A stretch of 64,000 nucleotides of DNA, taken from Candidatus Zixiibacteriota bacterium (GTDB lineage: Bacteria > Zixibacteria > MSB-5A5 > WJJR01). The notes beneath the pieces are model-generated. The model made no database searches. It was not told the origin of the DNA and saw only the letters and a list, made by a program, of their open reading frames with translations. A program made the position numbers and the translations under genes. Within the stretch, counting starts at the first letter, position 1. The number at the start of each line of letters is the position of its first letter. The stretch lies in assembly GCA_036397555.1 (NCBI GenBank), contig DASWIS010000031.1, forward strand, positions 80,052-144,051, in the 5' to 3' direction. Shown piece after piece: positions 1,420 to 58,020 of this stretch.

Positions 1420-1520
1420 CGGTCCCCACGCCATCTGCGTCGGCAATCTTCGCAATTGCCGATCCGTCAGATCACGTATAAGTTTCCTGTAGGGGGGGCT
1501 TTGCCGATCAATACACAGTG

Positions 1521-3674: not shown

Positions 3675-5213
3675 ATGCTCGCCAAAATCACCTCATCGGC
3701 GGTCCTGGGCATCGACGCCTATTTGGTCGAGGTCGAGGCCGATATCTCGCCGTCACTGCCCGCTTTCGTAACGGTCGGGCTCCCGGAGGGCGCGGTGCGC
3801 GAGGCGCGTGAACGGGTCCAGGCGGCGATTAAAAACTCCGAGTTCATGTATCCCAACAAAAAGATTACGATCAACCTCGCCCCGGCAGACATCCGCAAGG
3901 AGGGCTCGGCCTTTGATCTGCCGATGGCGGTCGGGATCATGGCGGCGACCGGGCAGATTCTGCGCGAGGATTATTCCGAATACGTGCTCGTCGGGGAGCT
4001 TTCTCTCGATGGATCGCTCAAGCCGATTCACGGTGTCCTGCCCATGGCGCTCAAAGCGCTGGCCGATGGTAAGAAGGGATTTCTGGTCCCCGATGAAAAC
4101 GCGCGCGAAGCCGCCATCGCCAAGGGACTGAAGGTCTATCCGGTGCGCTCGTTGCGCGACACGGTCACTTTTCTGGAAAACGGCGACTCAGCGGTCCCGT
4201 ACGATCTCGACATCGACGAGGTCTTTGCCGAGGCGCGTGTCTACCCGGTCGATTTCACCGACGTCAAGGGACAGCAACTGGCCAAGCGCGCGCTCGAAGT
4301 CGCGGCCGCGGGCGGGCACAATGTCATCATGGTCGGGCCGCCGGGATCGGGCAAGACGATGCTGGCGCGACGTTTCCCCACCATCCTGCCCGACATGACG
4401 CTCGATGAAGCGCTCGAAACGACCAAGATTCACTCCGTATCCGGGACGCTCCAGGCCGGACGCGCTCTGATCGCAAATCGTCCCTATCGCTCGCCGCATC
4501 ACACGATTTCCAATGCGGGCCTGGTTGGCGGCGGCACGACGCCGCGTCCCGGCGAGGTCTCACTTGCGCACAATGGCGTGCTGTTCCTCGATGAGCTGCC
4601 GGAGTTTAACAAGGACGTCCTTGAAGTGTTGCGTCAGCCCATCGAAGACGGGCATGTCACCATCGCCCGCGCGGCGCTGACTTTGACGTTCCCGGCCCGC
4701 TTCATGCTGGTCGGCGCGATGAACCCGTGCCCCTGCGGGTACTACGGCTCGTCCCTTCACGACTGCACCTGCTCGCAGCAGCAGATCACGCGCTACATGT
4801 CGAAGATTTCTGGTCCGCTGATGGACCGCATCGACATCCACATCGAAGTGCCCGCCGTGAAGTTTAAGGAACTCTCGTCGGAGGAGGCGGGCGAGCCCTC
4901 GGCCGTCGTGCGCCAGCGTGTCAACACCGCCCGCAAGCGGCAAATCGAACGCTTCACCAAAGAACCGGGCATCCATTGCAATGCGCACATGGAGTCCAAA
5001 CACCTGCGCGAGTATTGCCCGATTTCCAATGAATCGCTTGATTTGATGCGCCGCGCGATCAACAAACTGGGGCTCTCGGCGCGCGCCTATGATCGCATTC
5101 TCAAAGTCTCGCGTACGATCGCCGACCTCGAAGGGACCGGGGACATTCACCCGCAGCACATTGCCGAAGCGATCCAATACCGCAATCTTGACCGCAACAT
5201 CTGGATGAACTGA
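3675..5213 (+). CDS. comM: YifB/ComM family Mg-chelatase-like AAA+ ATPase
   Basis: Walker A GPPGSGKT; Cys-rich insert CPCGYYG..CTC; full-length similarity to ComM/YifB (ChlI-like) family. Confidence 0.9.
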   Translation: MLAKITSSAVLGIDAYLVEVEADISPSLPAFVTVGLPEGAVREARERVQAAIKNSEFMYPNKKITINLAPADIRKEGSAFDLPMAVGIMAATGQILREDYSEYVLVGELSLDGSLKPIHGVLPMALKALADGKKGFLVPDENAREAAIAKGLKVYPVRSLRDTVTFLENGDSAVPYDLDIDEVFAEARVYPVDFTDVKGQQLAKRALEVAAAGGHNVIMVGPPGSGKTMLARRFPTILPDMTLDEALETTKIHSVSGTLQAGRALIANRPYRSPHHTISNAGLVGGGTTPRPGEVSLAHNGVLFLDELPEFNKDVLEVLRQPIEDGHVTIARAALTLTFPARFMLVGAMNPCPCGYYGSSLHDCTCSQQQITRYMSKISGPLMDRIDIHIEVPAVKFKELSSEEAGEPSAVVRQRVNTARKRQIERFTKEPGIHCNAHMESKHLREYCPISNESLDLMRRAINKLGLSARAYDRILKVSRTIADLEGTGDIHPQHIAEAIQYRNLDRNIWMN

Positions 5214-6004
5214 TGAGCAATCCCGAACTCAAAGACGCTGTCTGGCAGGTGCTTGAGCAGGCCGCCCGTCATCAGGAAAGCGGCGGCACGGTGCACTCCG
5301 ACTATATCATCCGCAAGTTCCCGCAGGTGAATGAAATCGAACTCATCAACGCCATCGGCGAGTTGGTCGAGGATGGAAAGGTTACGGTCAAGGCCGCCAC
5401 GATCGACGCGCATGGAAACGCCACGGCCTATCACATCCATGTGCGCGACGTCGGGGACCGTCCCGATGCGCCGCCGACTCGCGGGCCGCGCATCGCCTCC
5501 GGCAGCGTCGGCTTCGGGCCGGGCTCCGGGCCGCCGCCGCCGGAGCAGAAGCCGCCCGCCGATGAACCGAAAAAGTCCGCGGACAGAGCCGTCGAGCAGG
5601 CGTCGCGTGTCAGTGTCGGTTTTGGCGGCGATCAGCCCGCGCTGTCGAAGCAACCGCCGCCGGATGATCGTTCGGATCGTGTCAACGTCTCCGTGCCGGG
5701 CACCGTCGACAAGCGTTCGGCGATGCAAATGGAAGCCGAGCAAAACTTCGCCGACGAGATGGCGTCGTTCTTCGCCGAATTGGAGATGGCGGAAACCTCC
5801 GACCCCGATGCCCGCGACGAACTGACCAACCAATTGATGGTGCTGATGGCGATGTTCCAGATGGGCGAGACACGCGACTTCACCACCCCGATCAACAAAC
5901 TCGCCGCATTGAAGACCCGCGTCGCGCATGTCGTCCCCGACCTCGTCGGCGACTATGTCCTGCTCGTGCAGACCGCGGTCCGTGCGTGGCTGGGGCGGGT
6001 GTAA
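5213..6004 (+). CDS. hypothetical protein (structured N-domain, Pro/Gly-rich disordered linker, helical C-domain), translationally coupled to comM
   Basis: ATG at 5213 overlaps the comM TGA (5211-5213) as ATGA; low-complexity GPGSGPPPPEQKPP linker. Confidence 0.5.
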   Translation: MSNPELKDAVWQVLEQAARHQESGGTVHSDYIIRKFPQVNEIELINAIGELVEDGKVTVKAATIDAHGNATAYHIHVRDVGDRPDAPPTRGPRIASGSVGFGPGSGPPPPEQKPPADEPKKSADRAVEQASRVSVGFGGDQPALSKQPPPDDRSDRVNVSVPGTVDKRSAMQMEAEQNFADEMASFFAELEMAETSDPDARDELTNQLMVLMAMFQMGETRDFTTPINKLAALKTRVAHVVPDLVGDYVLLVQTAVRAWLGRV

Positions 6005-6020
6005 TGCCCGCTCAGGGATT

Positions 6021-6044
6021 CGTAGGGTGGGCTCAGCCCACCAA
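6021..6044. repeat. REP-like palindrome, GTAG-type (CGTAGGGTGGGCTCAGCCCACCAA)
   Basis: 5' GTAG followed by a perfect 7-bp stem GGTGGGC/GCCCACC with a TCA loop. Sits immediately 5' of the RAYT-like pseudogene; a near-identical copy is at 23461-23484. Confidence 0.55.
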
Positions 6045-6056
6045 TCCTTGACGGCC

Positions 6057-6609
6057 ATGTCAACAGATCGACGCCTCCGCATTGCAGGTGTGACGGATTT
6101 CTTCACTGTGGCGACCCATCAACATGGGCCGATCCTGACGCTCGACAGAATTCCGGAAATCTTGCTTGGGAGTTTCGAGAAGCACGGGATCGGGCGGAAT
6201 TCGACATGCTTGCGCCCGGCATCCTTCCCGAACACCTCCATTGCATATGGAAGATGCCCTCCGAATACTCCGACCTTTCCCGTATCTGGGCGCTCATCCA
6301 ACTTGGGCTCATCGAGCACATCAAAGACTTTTCAATCGTTATGAACCGTTCAGGAATGCAAGCCAGATCTCGAGTCAGCTGTGGCTACTGTGCAGTTTTG
6401 CAAAGAGATTCTGGGAAAACGCGATCCGTGACGATGAGGACCTGAGTCAGCACGTGGATTACGCTCATTACAACCCTGTCAAACATGGGCTTGTGACGAA
6501 TCCCCCGGAGTTGTCATATTCCAGCTTTCGGCGGTATGTTGACCAAGGGTATTATGAGTACGATTGGTCCGAAGAACTCGAGTTGACTGTCGAGGTCGGA
6601 TCGGAGTGA
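6057..6609 (+). pseudogene. REP-associated tyrosine transposase (RAYT, IS200/IS605 Y1 family), disrupted by two frameshifts
   Basis: Three consecutive reading frames carry consecutive RAYT segments. From ATG 6057: MSTDRRLRIAGVTDFFTV. Next frame: ARDRAEFDMLAPGILPEHLHCIW (HUH motif HLH). Third frame: RFWENAIRDDEDLSQHVDYAHYNPVKHGLV (catalytic Tyr region). Low GC (43% in a sampled line). Confidence 0.65.
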
Positions 6610-6644
6610 TAAACGCGAGCGGTGTTTCGCAGAATGGGACATCG

Positions 6645-6661
6645 GTGGGCTGAGACCACCT
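6645..6661. repeat. degenerate REP-like palindrome (GGTGGGCTGAGACCACC) 3' of the RAYT pseudogene
   Basis: GGTGG...CCACC arms around GCTGAGA; resembles the 6021-6044 REP core but lacks GTAG. Confidence 0.3.
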
Positions 6662-6697
6662 GACGAATCCTCTGCGGATGTTCCTATACCATTGAGC

Positions 6698-8095
6698 ATG
6701 AACAAACATCAGCGCACCATAAAGCAGTCCGCCGAATTCGCCGGCATCGGCTTGCACACCGGCAAGCCGTCGACCATCAGCTTTCATCCGGCCCCGGTCG
6801 GGACCGGGATTGTGTTTCGTGTCCCGTCCAACGGCGGCACCGTCGATCTGAAGGCGGACATCGGTTCGGTGATCGATGTTCATCGCGGTACGACCATTGC
6901 CCAGGGCGAAGCCAAGGTGCACACGGTCGAGCATGTGCTCTCGGCGCTCGCCGGGTTGGAAATCGACAACTGCGTCTGCACGCTCGACAATGTCGAGCCG
7001 CCGATCGGCGATGGTTCCAGCAAGCCGTATGTCGACGTGCTGCTGAAGGCAGGAATTCAGGGACAGGACGAGCCGAAGGTCTACTTCGAGCCGGATGCGC
7101 CGATCAACTACTCCGAACCGGGACGCGGCGTCGATCTGATCTGTCTGCCCTCCGACGATTTCCGCGTCACCTACATGGTCGATTACCGCAATCCGGCGCT
7201 CGGCACGCAATACACGACGTTGACATCGCTGGACGAGGAATACGCCCAGGAATTCGCCCCGGCGCGGACCTTCTGTTTTCTTTCGGAAGTCGAGCAGCTC
7301 CACCAGCAAGGACTGATCAAAGGTGGCTCGCTTGACAACGCCATCGTCATTTGCGATGACGGCTACACGCAGGCCGATGCCGAACGTCTTGGACGGATTG
7401 TCGGAATCGACAAACCGTTGCCGATCGGCACCAACGGCATCCTCAACAACGGCGATCTGCGTTTTCCCAACGAGCCGGTGCGTCACAAAGTGGTCGATCT
7501 GATCGGCGACTTGGCGTTGATCGGCCGTCCGCTGAAGGCACACATCCTGGCCGCACGCTCGGGGCATGCTGCCAACGTCGCCCTGGCCAAACGCATCAAG
7601 GCCGAAATCGACAAGAAGAAGTTAGGCGAGAAATACAAAGCGCCGACAACGGGCGGCACGCTCCAGCTCGATGCCGAGGCGATCGCGCGCATCCTCCCAC
7701 ACCGTTACCCGATGCTGCTGATCGACCGTATCCTCTCGCTGGAACCCGGCAAGCATGTCACCGCGATCAAGAATGTATCCTTAAACGAACCGTTCTTCAG
7801 CGGCCACTTTCCCGATCATCCGATCATGCCCGGCGTGCTGATTGTCGAGGCCATGGCACAGGCGGGGGGATTGATGCTGCTGAACATGATCCCGGAGCCG
7901 GAAAAGCAGGTTGTATACTTCATGGCCATCGACGATGCCCGTTTCCGCAAACCGGTGCGTCCCGGTGACCAATTGCGCTTCGAGGTCGAAATGCTGTCGT
8001 TCCGACGCGGCATGTGCAAGATCGCCGGCAAGGCATATGTCGATGACGCGCTGGTCACCGAGGCGACGATGATGGCGATGCTGATGGAACGATAA
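6698..8095 (+). CDS. lpxC-fabZ: bifunctional UDP-3-O-acyl-GlcNAc deacetylase / 3-hydroxyacyl-ACP dehydratase (LpxC-FabZ fusion)
   Basis: The N-terminal 300 aa align to LpxC (HTVEHVLSALAGLEIDN, HKxxD); the C-terminal 150 aa is a FabZ hot-dog (LPHRYPMLLIDRI, GHFPDHPIMPGVL). ATG at 6698 sits just inside the TTG-initiated ORF at 6692. Confidence 0.9.
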   Translation: MNKHQRTIKQSAEFAGIGLHTGKPSTISFHPAPVGTGIVFRVPSNGGTVDLKADIGSVIDVHRGTTIAQGEAKVHTVEHVLSALAGLEIDNCVCTLDNVEPPIGDGSSKPYVDVLLKAGIQGQDEPKVYFEPDAPINYSEPGRGVDLICLPSDDFRVTYMVDYRNPALGTQYTTLTSLDEEYAQEFAPARTFCFLSEVEQLHQQGLIKGGSLDNAIVICDDGYTQADAERLGRIVGIDKPLPIGTNGILNNGDLRFPNEPVRHKVVDLIGDLALIGRPLKAHILAARSGHAANVALAKRIKAEIDKKKLGEKYKAPTTGGTLQLDAEAIARILPHRYPMLLIDRILSLEPGKHVTAIKNVSLNEPFFSGHFPDHPIMPGVLIVEAMAQAGGLMLLNMIPEPEKQVVYFMAIDDARFRKPVRPGDQLRFEVEMLSFRRGMCKIAGKAYVDDALVTEATMMAMLMER

Positions 8096-8107: not shown

Positions 8108-8929
8108 GTGAACACGCAGGCCACGACCATGACCGATCCCGGCGTTCGGCGGACCCAGACCGTAGTCCACCCGACTGCGATCGTCGATCCGCGCGCGCGC
8201 CTCGACATCGGCGTAACGGTCGAGCCCTATGCGATCATCGAAGGGGATGTGAGCATTGCCTCCGGGACTGTCATCGGTTCGCACTCCCGCATCGGCCCCG
8301 GAACGCACATCGGGCACGATGTCCGCATCTCGCACGGCGCCGTCGTCGGAACTGAGCCGCAGGACTTGAAATACGCCGGCGAGCCGACCGCGACACACAT
8401 TGGCGACCGCACCATCATCCGCGAATGCGCCACGGTGCACCGGGGCACGGCCAAGACCGGCCGGACCATTGTCGGCGCCGACTGCATGATTATGGCGTAT
8501 GCCCATGTCGCGCACGACAACACGCTCGGCCATCATGTCATCCTCGCCAACACGGTCCAGTTGGGCGGGCATGTCACGCTCGGCGATTGGGTGGTGATCG
8601 GCGGCGGCACGGTCGTCCATCAATTCACGCTGATCGGCCCCCATGCCATGGTCGGCGGCGGTTTTCGCGTAACTCAGGATATCATGCCGTATGTCGTTGT
8701 CGGCGGATACCCGTTGAAAACCCTGTCGCTGAACCGTGTCGGACTCCAACGTCGCGGATTCGCTCCGGACAAGATCGCCGAGCTGTCGCGCGCGTTTCGT
8801 ATTGTCTTTCGTTCCAAACTTAATTTTTCACAGGCCGCCGACGAGCTGCAACGCGCCATGCCCGACAGTGCCGTAGCACAACAGATGCGGGCATTCATCC
8901 TGCAATCCGAGCGCGGTCTTGTCCGCTGA
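8108..8929 (+). CDS. lpxA: acyl-ACP--UDP-GlcNAc O-acyltransferase
   Basis: Left-handed beta-helix hexapeptide repeats; VHPTAIV and DLKYAGEPT motifs as in LpxA. GTG 8108 with AAGGGG upstream; ATG 8126 is an alternative start. Confidence 0.85.
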   Translation: MNTQATTMTDPGVRRTQTVVHPTAIVDPRARLDIGVTVEPYAIIEGDVSIASGTVIGSHSRIGPGTHIGHDVRISHGAVVGTEPQDLKYAGEPTATHIGDRTIIRECATVHRGTAKTGRTIVGADCMIMAYAHVAHDNTLGHHVILANTVQLGGHVTLGDWVVIGGGTVVHQFTLIGPHAMVGGGFRVTQDIMPYVVVGGYPLKTLSLNRVGLQRRGFAPDKIAELSRAFRIVFRSKLNFSQAADELQRAMPDSAVAQQMRAFILQSERGLVR

Positions 8930-10074
8930 TGCCTGACACCTCATTGTGTGTCGTGGCCGGAGAACCATCCGGCGATCTGCACGGCGCGCGTCTGATCACC
9001 ACAATCAAGCAGCGTCATCCCGATTGGCGCATCTGGGGAGTCGGCTCCGCGCAGATGGCGGCCGCCGGATGTGAACTGTGGCAGGACGCCCGCGACTGGG
9101 GGCTCTCGGGGATCGTCGATGTCGTCCTGTCGCTCCCGCGCGTTCTGCGACGGTTGAGTCGATTGACCGATGCCATCGTCGAACGCAAACCGACCGGCGT
9201 TGTCCTGATCGACTATCCCGGATTCAATCTGCGCCTGGCCAAACGCATCCACGCGCACGGGGCGCGGGTACTCTATTACATCGTGCCGCAATTGTGGGCT
9301 TGGGGGCCGAATCGGATCAAGGTCTTTCAGGACTGCATCGACCGCGCGATCGTGGCATTCGGGTTTGAGCAGGAATACTTTCGGACGCACCATGTTACGG
9401 CCGATTGGGTCGGACATCCGTTGACCGACGTTGTGGCGGCCTCGGCCCCGCGTGAGATTGTGCGTCAACGGCTGAGGGTAGGCGCAGACGAACCACTCGT
9501 TACACTGCTACCGGGGGCGCGGCACGCCGAATTTCGATCACACTGGGATTTGTTCCGAACGGCGGCCCAGCTCATTGCCGCGTCTGTGCCACGCGCCCGC
9601 ATCGCGCTGGGACTGGCGCCGACCATTGCGGATCGGAACACGGTCGGAGACTTTGAAGACGGGATAATCGTCTCGTCCGATGTGTACGATTTGATCGCTG
9701 CGGCGGATCTGGTCATCACCAAACCGGGCACTGCCACGGTCGAATGCGCGCTGTTGAATACGCCGATGATCTCGGTATATCGCACCGGTTCGCTCAACTA
9801 CGCCATCGCCCGCCGTCTGGTCCGGATCGATCAGATGGCGATGCCGAATATTCTCCTGAAGCGCACGGTCGTGCCCGAGTTTCTCCAGAACGATGCGACC
9901 CCCGAAGGCATTGCGGCGTCGGCCCGTCAACTGCTCAACGACAAAGCCGCGCGGTCGCGGCAGTTGGCCGCCCTATCCGAGGTTCGCGACGCGCTCGGGT
10001 CACAGGGAGCGGTGGCGCGTGCCGCCGGGATCGTCGATGAATGGATTGGGGAACTGCGAGGGTCCCTCGGGTGA
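8929..10074 (+). CDS. lpxB: lipid-A-disaccharide synthase
   Basis: VVAGEPSGD N-terminus and GT-B fold signature of LpxB; ATGA overlap with the lpxA stop. Confidence 0.85.
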   Translation: MPDTSLCVVAGEPSGDLHGARLITTIKQRHPDWRIWGVGSAQMAAAGCELWQDARDWGLSGIVDVVLSLPRVLRRLSRLTDAIVERKPTGVVLIDYPGFNLRLAKRIHAHGARVLYYIVPQLWAWGPNRIKVFQDCIDRAIVAFGFEQEYFRTHHVTADWVGHPLTDVVAASAPREIVRQRLRVGADEPLVTLLPGARHAEFRSHWDLFRTAAQLIAASVPRARIALGLAPTIADRNTVGDFEDGIIVSSDVYDLIAAADLVITKPGTATVECALLNTPMISVYRTGSLNYAIARRLVRIDQMAMPNILLKRTVVPEFLQNDATPEGIAASARQLLNDKAARSRQLAALSEVRDALGSQGAVARAAGIVDEWIGELRGSLG

Positions 10075-23011: not shown

Positions 23012-23464
23012 ATGACCGAGTTCCAACTCTCCATCGTGACACCCGAAAAGACGATCTTCGATCAGAACGTCGTCTCGCTGATCGTGCCTGCCGCCGAGGG
23101 ATACCTCGGCGTCATGGCGCATCATGCCCCGCTCATCACCACATTGCAGCCGGGCAAGATCACGATCACTCTTTCAACTCGTGCCGAAGGTCACGATTCA
23201 GGTGTCGAGCTGCTGCTGGCAATTTCCGGCGGATTCCTCGAAGTCGCCGACAACCGCGCCACAATCCTTGCCGACACTGCCGAACAAGCGACTCAGATCG
23301 ACCGCGAACGCGCCCTGCAATCGCTCGAGCGCGCGCGCAATCGTGTCCACGAAGCCCGCACCGGCAACGGCGACTGGGATTTGGACCGCGCGCTCGGCGC
23401 ACTCCACCGCGCCGAAAACCGCGTTCGTGTTGCGGATGCGTCGCTCGCCGAAGTCGAACGGTAG
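23012..23464 (+). CDS. atpC: F0F1 ATP synthase subunit epsilon
   Basis: 150-aa beta-sandwich plus helical hairpin pattern; separated from atpD by a 229-nt structured spacer. Confidence 0.85.
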   Translation: MTEFQLSIVTPEKTIFDQNVVSLIVPAAEGYLGVMAHHAPLITTLQPGKITITLSTRAEGHDSGVELLLAISGGFLEVADNRATILADTAEQATQIDRERALQSLERARNRVHEARTGNGDWDLDRALGALHRAENRVRVADASLAEVER

Positions 23465-23484
23465 GGTGGGCTCTGCCCACCATT
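23461..23484. repeat. REP-like palindrome, second copy (GTAGGGTGGGCTCTGCCCACCATT)
   Basis: Identical to 6021-6044 except the loop base (A to T) and one 3' base. Overlaps the atpC stop. Confidence 0.55.
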
Positions 23485-23509
23485 CTGCCGCAAGTGCAGC
23501 AACGCATGT

Positions 23510-23549
23510 GCCACTGACCCCTGTGCCCCGAAGGGGTATGGTCAGTGGC
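23510..23549 (+). terminator. strong hairpin downstream of atpC (perfect 10-bp inverted repeat GCCACTGACC / GGTCAGTGGC with a nested CCCC-GAA-GGGG)
   Basis: Read directly. No U-run follows, so it may be a Rho-independent-like or processing structure rather than a canonical terminator. Confidence 0.35.
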
Positions 23550-23708
23550 CTTGAAAGACACCAATGACTAAAATCAGTGGCACACAAGAACGATTCGCTC
23601 GGTGGTCCACAGCTTACTGCGGGATGGCCGGACTCGCGAATTGAATCTCTCCCAGAGCAGAACTGTGGGGCACCGGTGCGAGCGATCTTGATTTGTGACT
23701 GTTACGTC

Positions 23709-40868: not shown

Positions 40869-40943
40869 CGTCCCCAACGAGATTCGAACTCGTGTTACCG
40901 CCGTGAAAGGGCGGTGTCCTAGACCGGGCTAGACGATGGGGAC
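40869..40943 (-). tRNA. tRNA-Glu (anticodon TTC)
   Basis: The reverse complement reads GTCCCCATCGTCTAG...CGCCCTTTCACGGCG...GGTTCGAATC...TGGGGACG. Cloverleaf with 7-bp acceptor; anticodon loop CTTTCAC; no encoded CCA. Confidence 0.8.
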
Positions 40944-53165: not shown

Positions 53166-53243
53166 TGGGGTGGGTGAAGGGATTTGAACCCTTGGCCCCC
53201 AGGGCCACAACCTGGTGCTCTAACCAACTGAGCTACACCCACC
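53166..53243 (-). tRNA. tRNA-His (anticodon GTG) with genome-encoded G-1 and 3' CCA
   Basis: The reverse complement reads GGTGGGTGTAGCTCAGTTGGTTAGAGCACCAGGTTGTGGCCCTGG...GGTTCAAATCCCTTCACCCACCCCA. 8-bp acceptor including G-1:C73. Confidence 0.85.
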
Positions 53244-54053: not shown

Positions 54054-54126
54054 GTACCCCCGGCAGGATTCGAACCTGCGACCCACAGCTTAGAAGGCTG
54101 TTGCTCTTCCTATTGAGCTACGGGGG
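54054..54126 (-). tRNA. tRNA-Arg (anticodon TCT)
   Basis: The reverse complement reads GCCCCCGTAGCTCAATAGGAAGAGCAACAGCCTTCTAAGCTGT...GGTTCGAATCCTGCCGGGGGTA. 73 nt; anticodon loop CTTCTAA. Confidence 0.8.
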
Positions 54127-54163
54127 CAATGGCGGCTTTGCCGTTCAAGTCTGTGTGCAACAA

Positions 54164-54237
54164 TCGGGGTGAGAGGATTTGAACCTCCGGCATCTTGCTC
54201 CCAAAGCAAGCGCGCTACCAGGCTGCGCTACACCCCG
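54164..54237 (-). tRNA. tRNA-Pro (anticodon TGG)
   Basis: The reverse complement reads CGGGGTGTAGCGCAGCCTGGTAGCGCGCTTGCTTTGGGAGCAAG...GGTTCAAATCCTCTCACCCCGA. 74 nt. Confidence 0.8.
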
Positions 54238-57932: not shown

Positions 57933-58020
57933 GCCGAAGTGGTGGAACTGGCAGACACGCTGTGTTCAGGGCGCAGTGCTCTTACGGGCGTGAGGGTTCG
58001 AATCCCTCCTTCGGCACCAA
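57933..58020 (+). tRNA. tRNA-Leu (anticodon CAG) with encoded CCA
   Basis: GCCGAAGTGGTGGAACTGGCAGAC...CTGTGTTCAGGGCGCAG...long variable arm...GGTTCGAATCCCTCCTTCGGCACCA; 88 nt. Confidence 0.85.

Follow-up and report, generated by a model that had tools for sequence, protein, structure and literature searches.

A decaying REP-associated tyrosine transposase gene between REP hairpins in an uncultured Zixibacteria lineage

The question raised by this locus is what lies between a gene of 263 amino acids (aa) and lpxC-fabZ in a 64-kb stretch of DNA (the window) from an uncultured candidate division Zixibacteria metagenome-assembled genome (MAG), and in what state it is. A sequence-only reading had proposed a REP-associated tyrosine transposase (RAYT) pseudogene, twice frameshifted and flanked by repetitive extragenic palindromes (REPs). 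The neighboring proteins are those with NCBI accessions HEX9751555, HEX9751557, and HEX9751559. We confirmed that positions 6057-6609 of the forward strand are a RAYT (TnpA_REP, Escherichia coli type) pseudogene spread over three successive frames, and it is highly probable that the locus as a whole is a REPtron, that is, a single-copy RAYT between inverted cognate REP hairpins, that has lost its function and is eroding.

Identity of the interrupted gene

When the three forward frames are translated over 6018-6664, MSTDRRLRIAGVTDFFTV begins at the ATG at 6057, LPEHLHCIW follows at 6224-6250, shifted by one frame from it and with the HUH histidines within 6233-6241, and HVDYAHYNPVKHGLV is found in the third frame at 6451-6495, with the catalytic Tyr codon at 6460-6462. 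The gene is divided into the following segments, given with the positions that each one matches in the NCBIfam profile NF047646:

6057-6181, forward strand: RAYT segment 1, the N terminus (MSTDRRLRIAGVTDFFTV...), ending at the first deletion, with 6180-6181 as the leftover bases of the damaged codon; profile positions 3-40.
6182-6408, forward strand: RAYT segment 2, with the HUH motif (His at 6233-6235, Leu, His at 6239-6241), ending at the second deletion, with 6407-6408 as the remains of a damaged codon; profile positions 34-89, E = 1.1e-9.
6409-6609, forward strand: RAYT segment 3, which contains FWEN, HVDYAHYNPVKHG with the catalytic Tyr (6460-6462), and a TGA stop codon (6607-6609); profile positions 105-146, E = 8.3e-14.

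NF047646 ("REP-associated tyrosine transposase") is the sole NCBIfam model matched by all three pieces. Singly they score 12.6, 38.3, and 51.7 bits, while the joined three-frame protein reaches 111.8 bits over profile positions 3-146 of 146, so that the curated cutoff of 80 bits is exceeded only once the three frames are joined. The sequence-only reading had taken the frames for consecutive thirds of one RAYT and had named a lack of collinearity in a profile alignment as grounds for giving up the idea; in that alignment the pieces are collinear, and the peptides that it quoted are all present. The joined protein also matches the structure of E. coli TnpA_REP (PDB 4ER8, E = 2e-20).

The active-site residues point in the same direction. 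In a 33-sequence family alignment, H60 and H62 of the HUH motif (PEHLHCIW) stand in invariant columns, and so do Y136, N140, P141, V142, K143, and H144 of the catalytic Tyr motif Y-x-x-x-N-P-V-K-H, which reads VDYAHYNPVKHG in the window. The EHLH, WE, and YxHYNP motifs fit subclass 2.2 of Quentin, equivalent to group 2 of Bertels (Quentin 2018, PMC6006769). One point weighs against the assignment: Pfam PF01797 (Y1_Tnp), present in many homologues, gave no match at an E value of ≤1 for any piece or for the rebuilt protein, and the only Pfam match in either was STIV_B116, at chance level.

The gene is also set apart by its base composition, as had been noticed before from a single line at 43% GC; positions 6300-6359 are at exactly that value. 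Gene GC is 52.3% versus 60.6% for the window, with about 0.62 in the flanks and 0.49-0.52 inside the gene. A promoter and terminator scan of 5800-6900 gave counts at chance level, and no REP was called a terminator. In one public annotation, segment 3 alone is labelled as a 120-aa "putative transposase" (P0002).

Two single-base deletions in the window allele

Among the proteins matched by the rebuilt RAYT, P0001 alone is a close relative, all others having an identity of 44% or less. P0001 is an uninterrupted ORF (open reading frame) of 184 codons in a sister strain (JGI 3300030606, contig Ga0299906_10000002; represented here by L007 and L008), where it occupies the same site, with the 263-aa gene on one side and lpxC-fabZ on the other. 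The DNA alignment of the window with this strain (94% nucleotide identity) contains exactly two gaps, each of them one base missing from the window. The first deletion follows 6181, where the window reads GAGAA^GC and the sister strain GAGAGTGC, and the second follows 6406, where AAAGA^GATTC corresponds to AAAGAGGATTC. The order of the frames (0, 2, 1, as start modulo 3) agrees with two 1-nucleotide (nt) deletions, and the two -1 frameshifts predicted earlier can therefore be placed to the base. As the N-terminal strand, the HUH motif, and the catalytic Tyr lie in three different frames, no working RAYT would be expected from the window. A pattern scan of metagenome contigs around the second site, with the missing base made optional, gave only the L007 contig, that is, no intermediate allele with a single frameshift.

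Single-base indels are a common artifact, and the earlier reading had itself raised the possibility that the frameshifts are sequencing or assembly errors in a gene that is really intact. Neither site is a homopolymer run (GAGAA^GC and AGA^GA), and the 711 nt that cover the REPs and the gene are 100% identical in the assemblies of four other sample accessions (L001-L004, from JGI 3300033417, 3300037518, and 3300030620 and from ENA ERZ27256875), whose underlying read sets may not be fully independent. Because of this identity across accessions, sequencing error is effectively excluded. The substitutions described below, even over codon positions and with an omega of 0.92, are likewise what a real pseudogene would show, and we give the idea of an error hardly any credence.

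REP elements in the window

Four REP elements were found in the window, two of them at the flanks of the gene:

6016-6045, forward strand: left REP, the left arm of a 30-nt inverted repeat, with the exact core GTAGGGTGGGCTCAGCCCACC at 6022-6042, located 18 nt past the stop of the upstream 263-aa gene.
6641-6670, reverse strand: right REP, inverted and degenerate, whose core at 6644-6664 reads GTCAGGTGGTCTCAGCCCACC on the minus strand, with 3 mismatches to the left REP.
23461-23484, forward strand: solitary intact REP GTAGGGTGGGCTCTGCCCACCATT, with a single mismatch that falls in the loop; the TAG of this REP serves atpC (ORF 23012-23464) as its stop codon.
1489-1512, forward strand: probable decayed REP relic GTAGGGGGGGCTTTGCCGATCAAT, intergenic, with 4 mismatches over 22 specified bases and the palindrome lost.

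The two arms, 6016-6045 and 6641-6670, are 87% complementary and enclose the RAYT gene. As single-stranded DNA, the left REP folds at -14.2 kcal/mol (z = -4.1), with a CGTAG bulge at the foot of the stem, while the right REP, with a broken stem and a head changed from GTAG to GTCA, forms only a weak fold (-6.6 kcal/mol, z = -1.8). The gene is bracketed, as in a REPtron, by an inverted palindromic repeat of the GT[AG]G-headed type, with the head still GTAG on the left and now GTCA on the right. The proposed bracketing by one intact GTAG-type REP and one degenerate REP is therefore what the locus contains. The RAYT is single copy in the window and is found at the same chromosomal site in the sister strain and in two further Zixibacteria described below (L129 and L138).

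There are 3 matches to the REP in the window at ≤3 mismatches versus 0.00 expected, and 4 elements at ≤5 mismatches over 22 specified bases versus 0.11 in 200 shuffles. Dispersal outside the gene flanks within the 64 kb amounts to one intact REP (23461) and one relic (1489). Ten assemblies have the REP at 23461 in identical form, among them one with 9 differences from the window over 2,620 bases, and the relic at 1489, which does not fold, is base-for-base identical in sister strain L007. The earlier claim that few REPs survive holds for the 64-kb window, where two of the four elements are degenerate, and is supported no further than that. In the sister strain (L007:9996-10016), the head of the left REP has changed from GTAG to GCAG, and the right REP has 4 mismatches, so its flanking REPs are eroding despite a RAYT ORF that is still open.

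Rfam at gathering thresholds, run over the whole window, returned nothing at the REPs and only five tRNAs (40869-40943, 53169-53242, 54055-54127, 54164-54237, and 57933-58016). An unrelated strong hairpin, not a GTAG-type REP, is found 30 nt past the atpC REP at 23510-23549 (GCCACTGACC...GGTCAGTGGC, with an inner CCCC/GGGG stem). Together with its surroundings (23484-23560, 77 nt), this hairpin folds at -16.7 kcal/mol, and a partial third copy of its arm (AATCAGTGGC) lies further downstream.

These REPs also bear on whether the gene, instead of being a RAYT, could come from a dead insertion sequence of the IS200/IS605 type (TnpA_IS200). Such transposases, like that of IS608, share the HUH/Y1 fold with RAYTs and use subterminal DNA hairpins, and the public label of the fragment as a putative transposase would fit them. 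However, they are multicopy mobile elements, often with tnpB, and have Y-x-x-x-Q, whereas the window gene occurs once in 64 kb, with no adjoining tnpB, as a cassette between the 263-aa gene and lpxC-fabZ, is fixed at that site across strains, and is associated with REPs, both as GTAG-headed flanks and as solitary copies elsewhere in the window. The tyrosine is followed by Y-x-x-x-N as in TnpA_REP, WE and YxHYNP are signatures of class 2.2, and the RAYT equivalog model is matched above its cutoff. An insertion sequence is, with all this, extremely improbable.

Relaxed selection and the timing of decay

The window and the sister ORF differ by 22 nonsynonymous and 7 synonymous substitutions, which gives an omega (the ratio of nonsynonymous to synonymous rates) of 0.92, and the differences are spread over codon positions 1, 2, and 3 as 8, 12, and 10. 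Four neighboring genes have omega values of 0.01-0.29 at similar synonymous divergence (dS). The difference between the RAYT and the pooled flanks is significant (Fisher P = 8e-7), and an omega of ≤0.3 is rejected for the RAYT (P = 0.005). Together with the two deletions, these values bear out the suggestion that the gene is decaying. There are 23 sites with A/T in the window where L007 has G/C and 9 with the reverse (P = 0.02).

Part of the damage is common to both alleles. In the 33-sequence alignment, five family positions conserved at ≥90% are changed in both (R23->H, L67->M, K82->Q, W115->L, and H122->N). The hallmark WQRRFWEH reads LQR(G)FWEN in the two alleles, so that the GTAG-recognition region W-Q-x-R-F-W-E-H-x-I-R is not intact: with LQR(G)FWENAIR, the equivalents of E. 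coli W94 and H101 have been replaced, while those of Q95, E100, and R104 are unchanged. Of the five positions above, W115 and H122 are the ones equivalent to W94 and H101, which are among the residues that contact the GTAG guide (PMC6006769). Judged from sequence, these replacements speak against present function, not against ancestry. Other losses are private, W153->L being found in the window alone and a change of F15 in the sister alone.

Because the losses of conserved residues are common to both alleles and the relic at 1489 is identical in both strains, decay appears to be older than the frameshifts. Constraint on the RAYT was probably lost, or at least weakened, before the window and sister lineages split, with the frameshifts coming later, and the sister ORF, although open, is probably an impaired relic. 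Two observations weigh against such an early loss. An omega of 0.5 is not rejected for the RAYT (P = 0.10, from 29 substitutions), so the sister ORF may keep some constraint, and any neutral phase must have been short, since a long one would have left stop codons in the 184-codon ORF that the sister strain still keeps open.

These data also bear on whether the frameshifts might be reversible, as suggested for the RAYTs of Neisseria meningitidis, or bypassed by programmed frameshifting, so that the RAYT is still in use. Neisseria RAYT frameshifts are found in short homopolymer tracts, and their on/off switching is possibly adaptive (Bertels and Rainey, bioRxiv 10.1101/2021.07.10.451892). Here, neither site has a homopolymer or repeat tract, and there is no allele heterogeneity among the four assemblies that cover the gene. 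Read-through would have to bypass two separate lesions, and programmed frameshifting was rejected as an explanation because no X XXY YYZ slippery heptamer is present in the required frame (sequence read by eye). With neutral evolution and the loss of GTAG-contacting residues added, either form of continued use is very improbable. The interpretation of the locus as a decaying RAYT is supported in every element, with its timing refined.

The same intergenic site in other Zixibacteria

For the history of the site, we compared Zixibacteria whose LpxC-FabZ is 75-80% identical to that of the window:

L129 (GCA_027349185.1): intact 181-aa RAYT, flanked by the same 21-mer REP core, inverted.
L138 (GCA_040752595.1): intact RAYT of 184 aa, surrounded on both sides by REP copies of the same 21-mer, five in all.
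L132, L134, and L139: empty site, with 16-36 nt between the two genes.
L136 and L137: unrelated genes at the site.

Searches for RAYT or REP remnants in L132, L134, L136, L137, and L139, at ≤4 mismatches or by tblastn, found none, so the losses were clean or these sites were never occupied. Most likely, judging from this comparison, the RAYT is an old resident of the site between the 263-aa gene and lpxC-fabZ and has been lost independently in several lineages. This would agree with the published description of RAYTs as single copy, site stable, and vertically inherited (Bertels and Rainey, bioRxiv 10.1101/2021.07.10.451892). The RAYTs of L129 and L138 are reciprocal best hits at 55%, the best hit of the window-type RAYT is that of L138 (42%), and in the three lineages the gene has the same orientation and a similar C terminus (...VGSE, ...VGSE, and ...IGNE). 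Against an old residency stand two points: in a neighbor-joining tree of LpxC, a single protein, the window lineage branches off at the base and lineages with an occupied site are intermixed with those whose site is empty, which would require at least four losses, and the reciprocal best hits have only a narrow lead (55% versus about 50%) in a comparison set that was chosen as hits to the window RAYT.

The alternative is that a REPtron arrived horizontally in a recent ancestor of the window and sister strains, seeded a few nearby REPs, and died, the RAYTs found at the site elsewhere being separate arrivals. This would fit the interleaving of occupied and empty sites on the LpxC tree, a gene GC of 52% against 61% in the window, the mere 40-44% identity of the nearest RAYT beyond the sister strain, and the presence of the same REP 21-mer in many phyla. 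REPs have been described to cluster near horizontally acquired rayt genes (Nunvar 2010, PMC2817692), and transfer followed by loss has been argued by Quentin (2018, PMC6006769). However, separate arrivals would have had to place RAYTs in three lineages in exactly the same intergenic space, in one orientation and with similar C termini, and they do not sit well with the best-hit relationships among these RAYTs. By the time the strains separated, the decay of the REP relic at a distance of 4.5 kb had already taken place. Low GC as a sign of recent horizontal arrival was rejected, as it is a property of the gene: in the lineages with an intact RAYT, too, the RAYT has a GC at third codon positions (GC3) about 10 points lower than the host genes have. 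We therefore consider recent arrival unlikely and old residency the better account of the site.

Some of these genomes have other features of their own at or near the site. In L136 (711-3004), an N6/N4 DNA methyltransferase and two unknown genes are located there, and in L137 (914-3004), two unknown genes and a 670-nt uncalled gap, with no trace of a RAYT or REP in either. It is possible that the intergenic space upstream of lpxC-fabZ is a hot spot for insertions. L129 has, at 1084-1686 and 3.7 kb upstream of its intact RAYT, a second, distant Y1-type gene (200 aa, PF01797, with an HVH motif), whose identity to the RAYTs is about 24-27%. In L129, L132, L134, and L136-L139, a gene for an oxidoreductase of the Gfo/Idh/MocA family is found between lpxA and lpxB, while the window lineage (8108-10074) and its sister strain are without it, with lpxA directly abutting lpxB.

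Proposed course of RAYT loss

By homology to E. coli TnpA_REP, a working RAYT of this type would be an HUH/Tyr single-strand DNA nuclease, predicted to recognize the GTAG head and hairpin of the REP and to cut and rejoin it, and such enzymes are thought to spread REPs and REPINs chromosome-wide. Constraint on this function was probably lost in the common ancestor of the window strain and its sister, before the frameshifts. The gene, the right-hand REP, and at least one dispersed REP would then have drifted neutrally, the window copy moving toward A+T, and the two 1-nt deletions, after 6181 and after 6406, would have put the HUH motif out of frame with both the N-terminal part and the catalytic Tyr. 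If so, the window presents one of several independent RAYT losses, caught part-way through.

Comparison with known systems

The closest model is the REPtron of E. coli, a layout that has been described for that species and others (PMC6006769). The window shares with it the arrangement of one gene enclosed by inverted REPs whose 5' head is GTAG, and with TnpA_REP (4ER8) the family, the HUH motif, a Tyr with an N four residues on, and a length of about 180 aa. The window protein is, however, only about 35% identical to TnpA_REP, the gene has two frameshifts, the equivalents of W94 and H101 are now L and N, and the REP is a short 21-nt hairpin of another sequence. Subclass 2.2 has been described as mainly proteobacterial (PMC6006769), whereas the host here is a Zixibacteria MAG.

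The REP itself is almost that of Haemophilus influenzae Rd, GTAGGGTGGGCTT[CT]AGCCCACC (Nunvar et al. 2010, Table 1, PMC2817692), with which it shares the GTAG head and the GGTGGGC/GCCCACC stem, although the loop is one base longer in Haemophilus and the host belongs to another phylum.

In its fate, the locus resembles that of Neisseria gonorrhoeae, in which the RAYT has a frameshift common to all strains and the REPINs are in decay (Bertels and Rainey, "Ancient Darwinian replicators," bioRxiv 10.1101/2021.07.10.451892). In both cases, a group 2 RAYT is frameshifted and fixed in the lineage, and the REPs are drifting from the master sequence. In contrast to N. gonorrhoeae, the window has two lesions, neither of them in a homopolymer tract, the sister strain keeps an open and apparently impaired ORF, and relatives have an intact gene or an empty site. 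The loss of a RAYT followed by the decay of its REPs is therefore already known, and what the window does is to extend the RAYT/REP system, together with this fate, to an uncultured Zixibacteria lineage.

The REP 21-mer in other phyla

The exact 21-mer GTAGGGTGGGCTC[AT]GCCCACC was scanned in one genome per species and is found in at least 120 stretches (L009-L128; for example, L013:1184-1204) versus about 2 expected by chance, as estimated from the size of the collection. Among the matches listed, the hosts include Planctomycetota, Desulfobacterota, Gallionella and Nitrosomonadales, several Gammaproteobacteria, Nodosilinea (Cyanobacteria), Poribacteria, Schekmanbacteria, Acidobacteriota, Chloroflexota, and other Zixibacteria. 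Many of the listed copies form inverted pairs 37-54 nt apart that are REPIN-like. Conservation ends at the edges of the 21-mer, save for a weak A-T-T on the 3' side. In the literature searched, the motif in a REP context turned up for Haemophilus alone (Nunvar 2010).

In four of these loci (L057, L065, L067, and L085), the 21-mer lies within a few hundred bases of a RAYT 33-43% identical to that of the window, and a REP(+)-RAYT-REP(-) layout with the same 21-mer is present in L057 (3400-4047) and L067 (2426-3089), as in L129 and L138. We can suggest, tentatively and as a possibility somewhat short of probable, that the REP class GTAGGGTGGGCTC[N]GCCCACC has been kept almost base for base beside the RAYTs of five groups (Zixibacteria, Planctomycetota, Desulfobacterota, Cyanobacteria, and Gammaproteobacteria, with dispersed copies in further phyla) while the RAYTs diverged to 33-55% identity. 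If true, either this RAYT clade would read the sequence of the REP stem itself, which would freeze the REP, or whole REPtrons would cross phyla far more often than the picture of vertically inherited RAYTs and lineage-specific REPINs allows.

One further genome, the deltaproteobacterial MAG H41-bin279_1 (L115), codes at 4909-5276 for a C-terminal RAYT fragment only (residues 104-171), located between an intact and a degenerate REP; a further six REP copies are found within 2 kb. This would seem to be another case of a decaying RAYT, in an unrelated genome.

Significance of the site series

Taken alone, the locus is an ordinary pseudogene, although well documented. Of greater interest is the occurrence of the identical REP 21-mer across phyla, a lead on which no claim should be made before a proper survey. 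The modest value of the locus itself lies in the comparative series that it completes at one fixed site, namely an intact gene, an open but impaired ORF, a doubly frameshifted gene, and clean absence. Such a series could be used to time the erosion of a REP population after its RAYT stops working.

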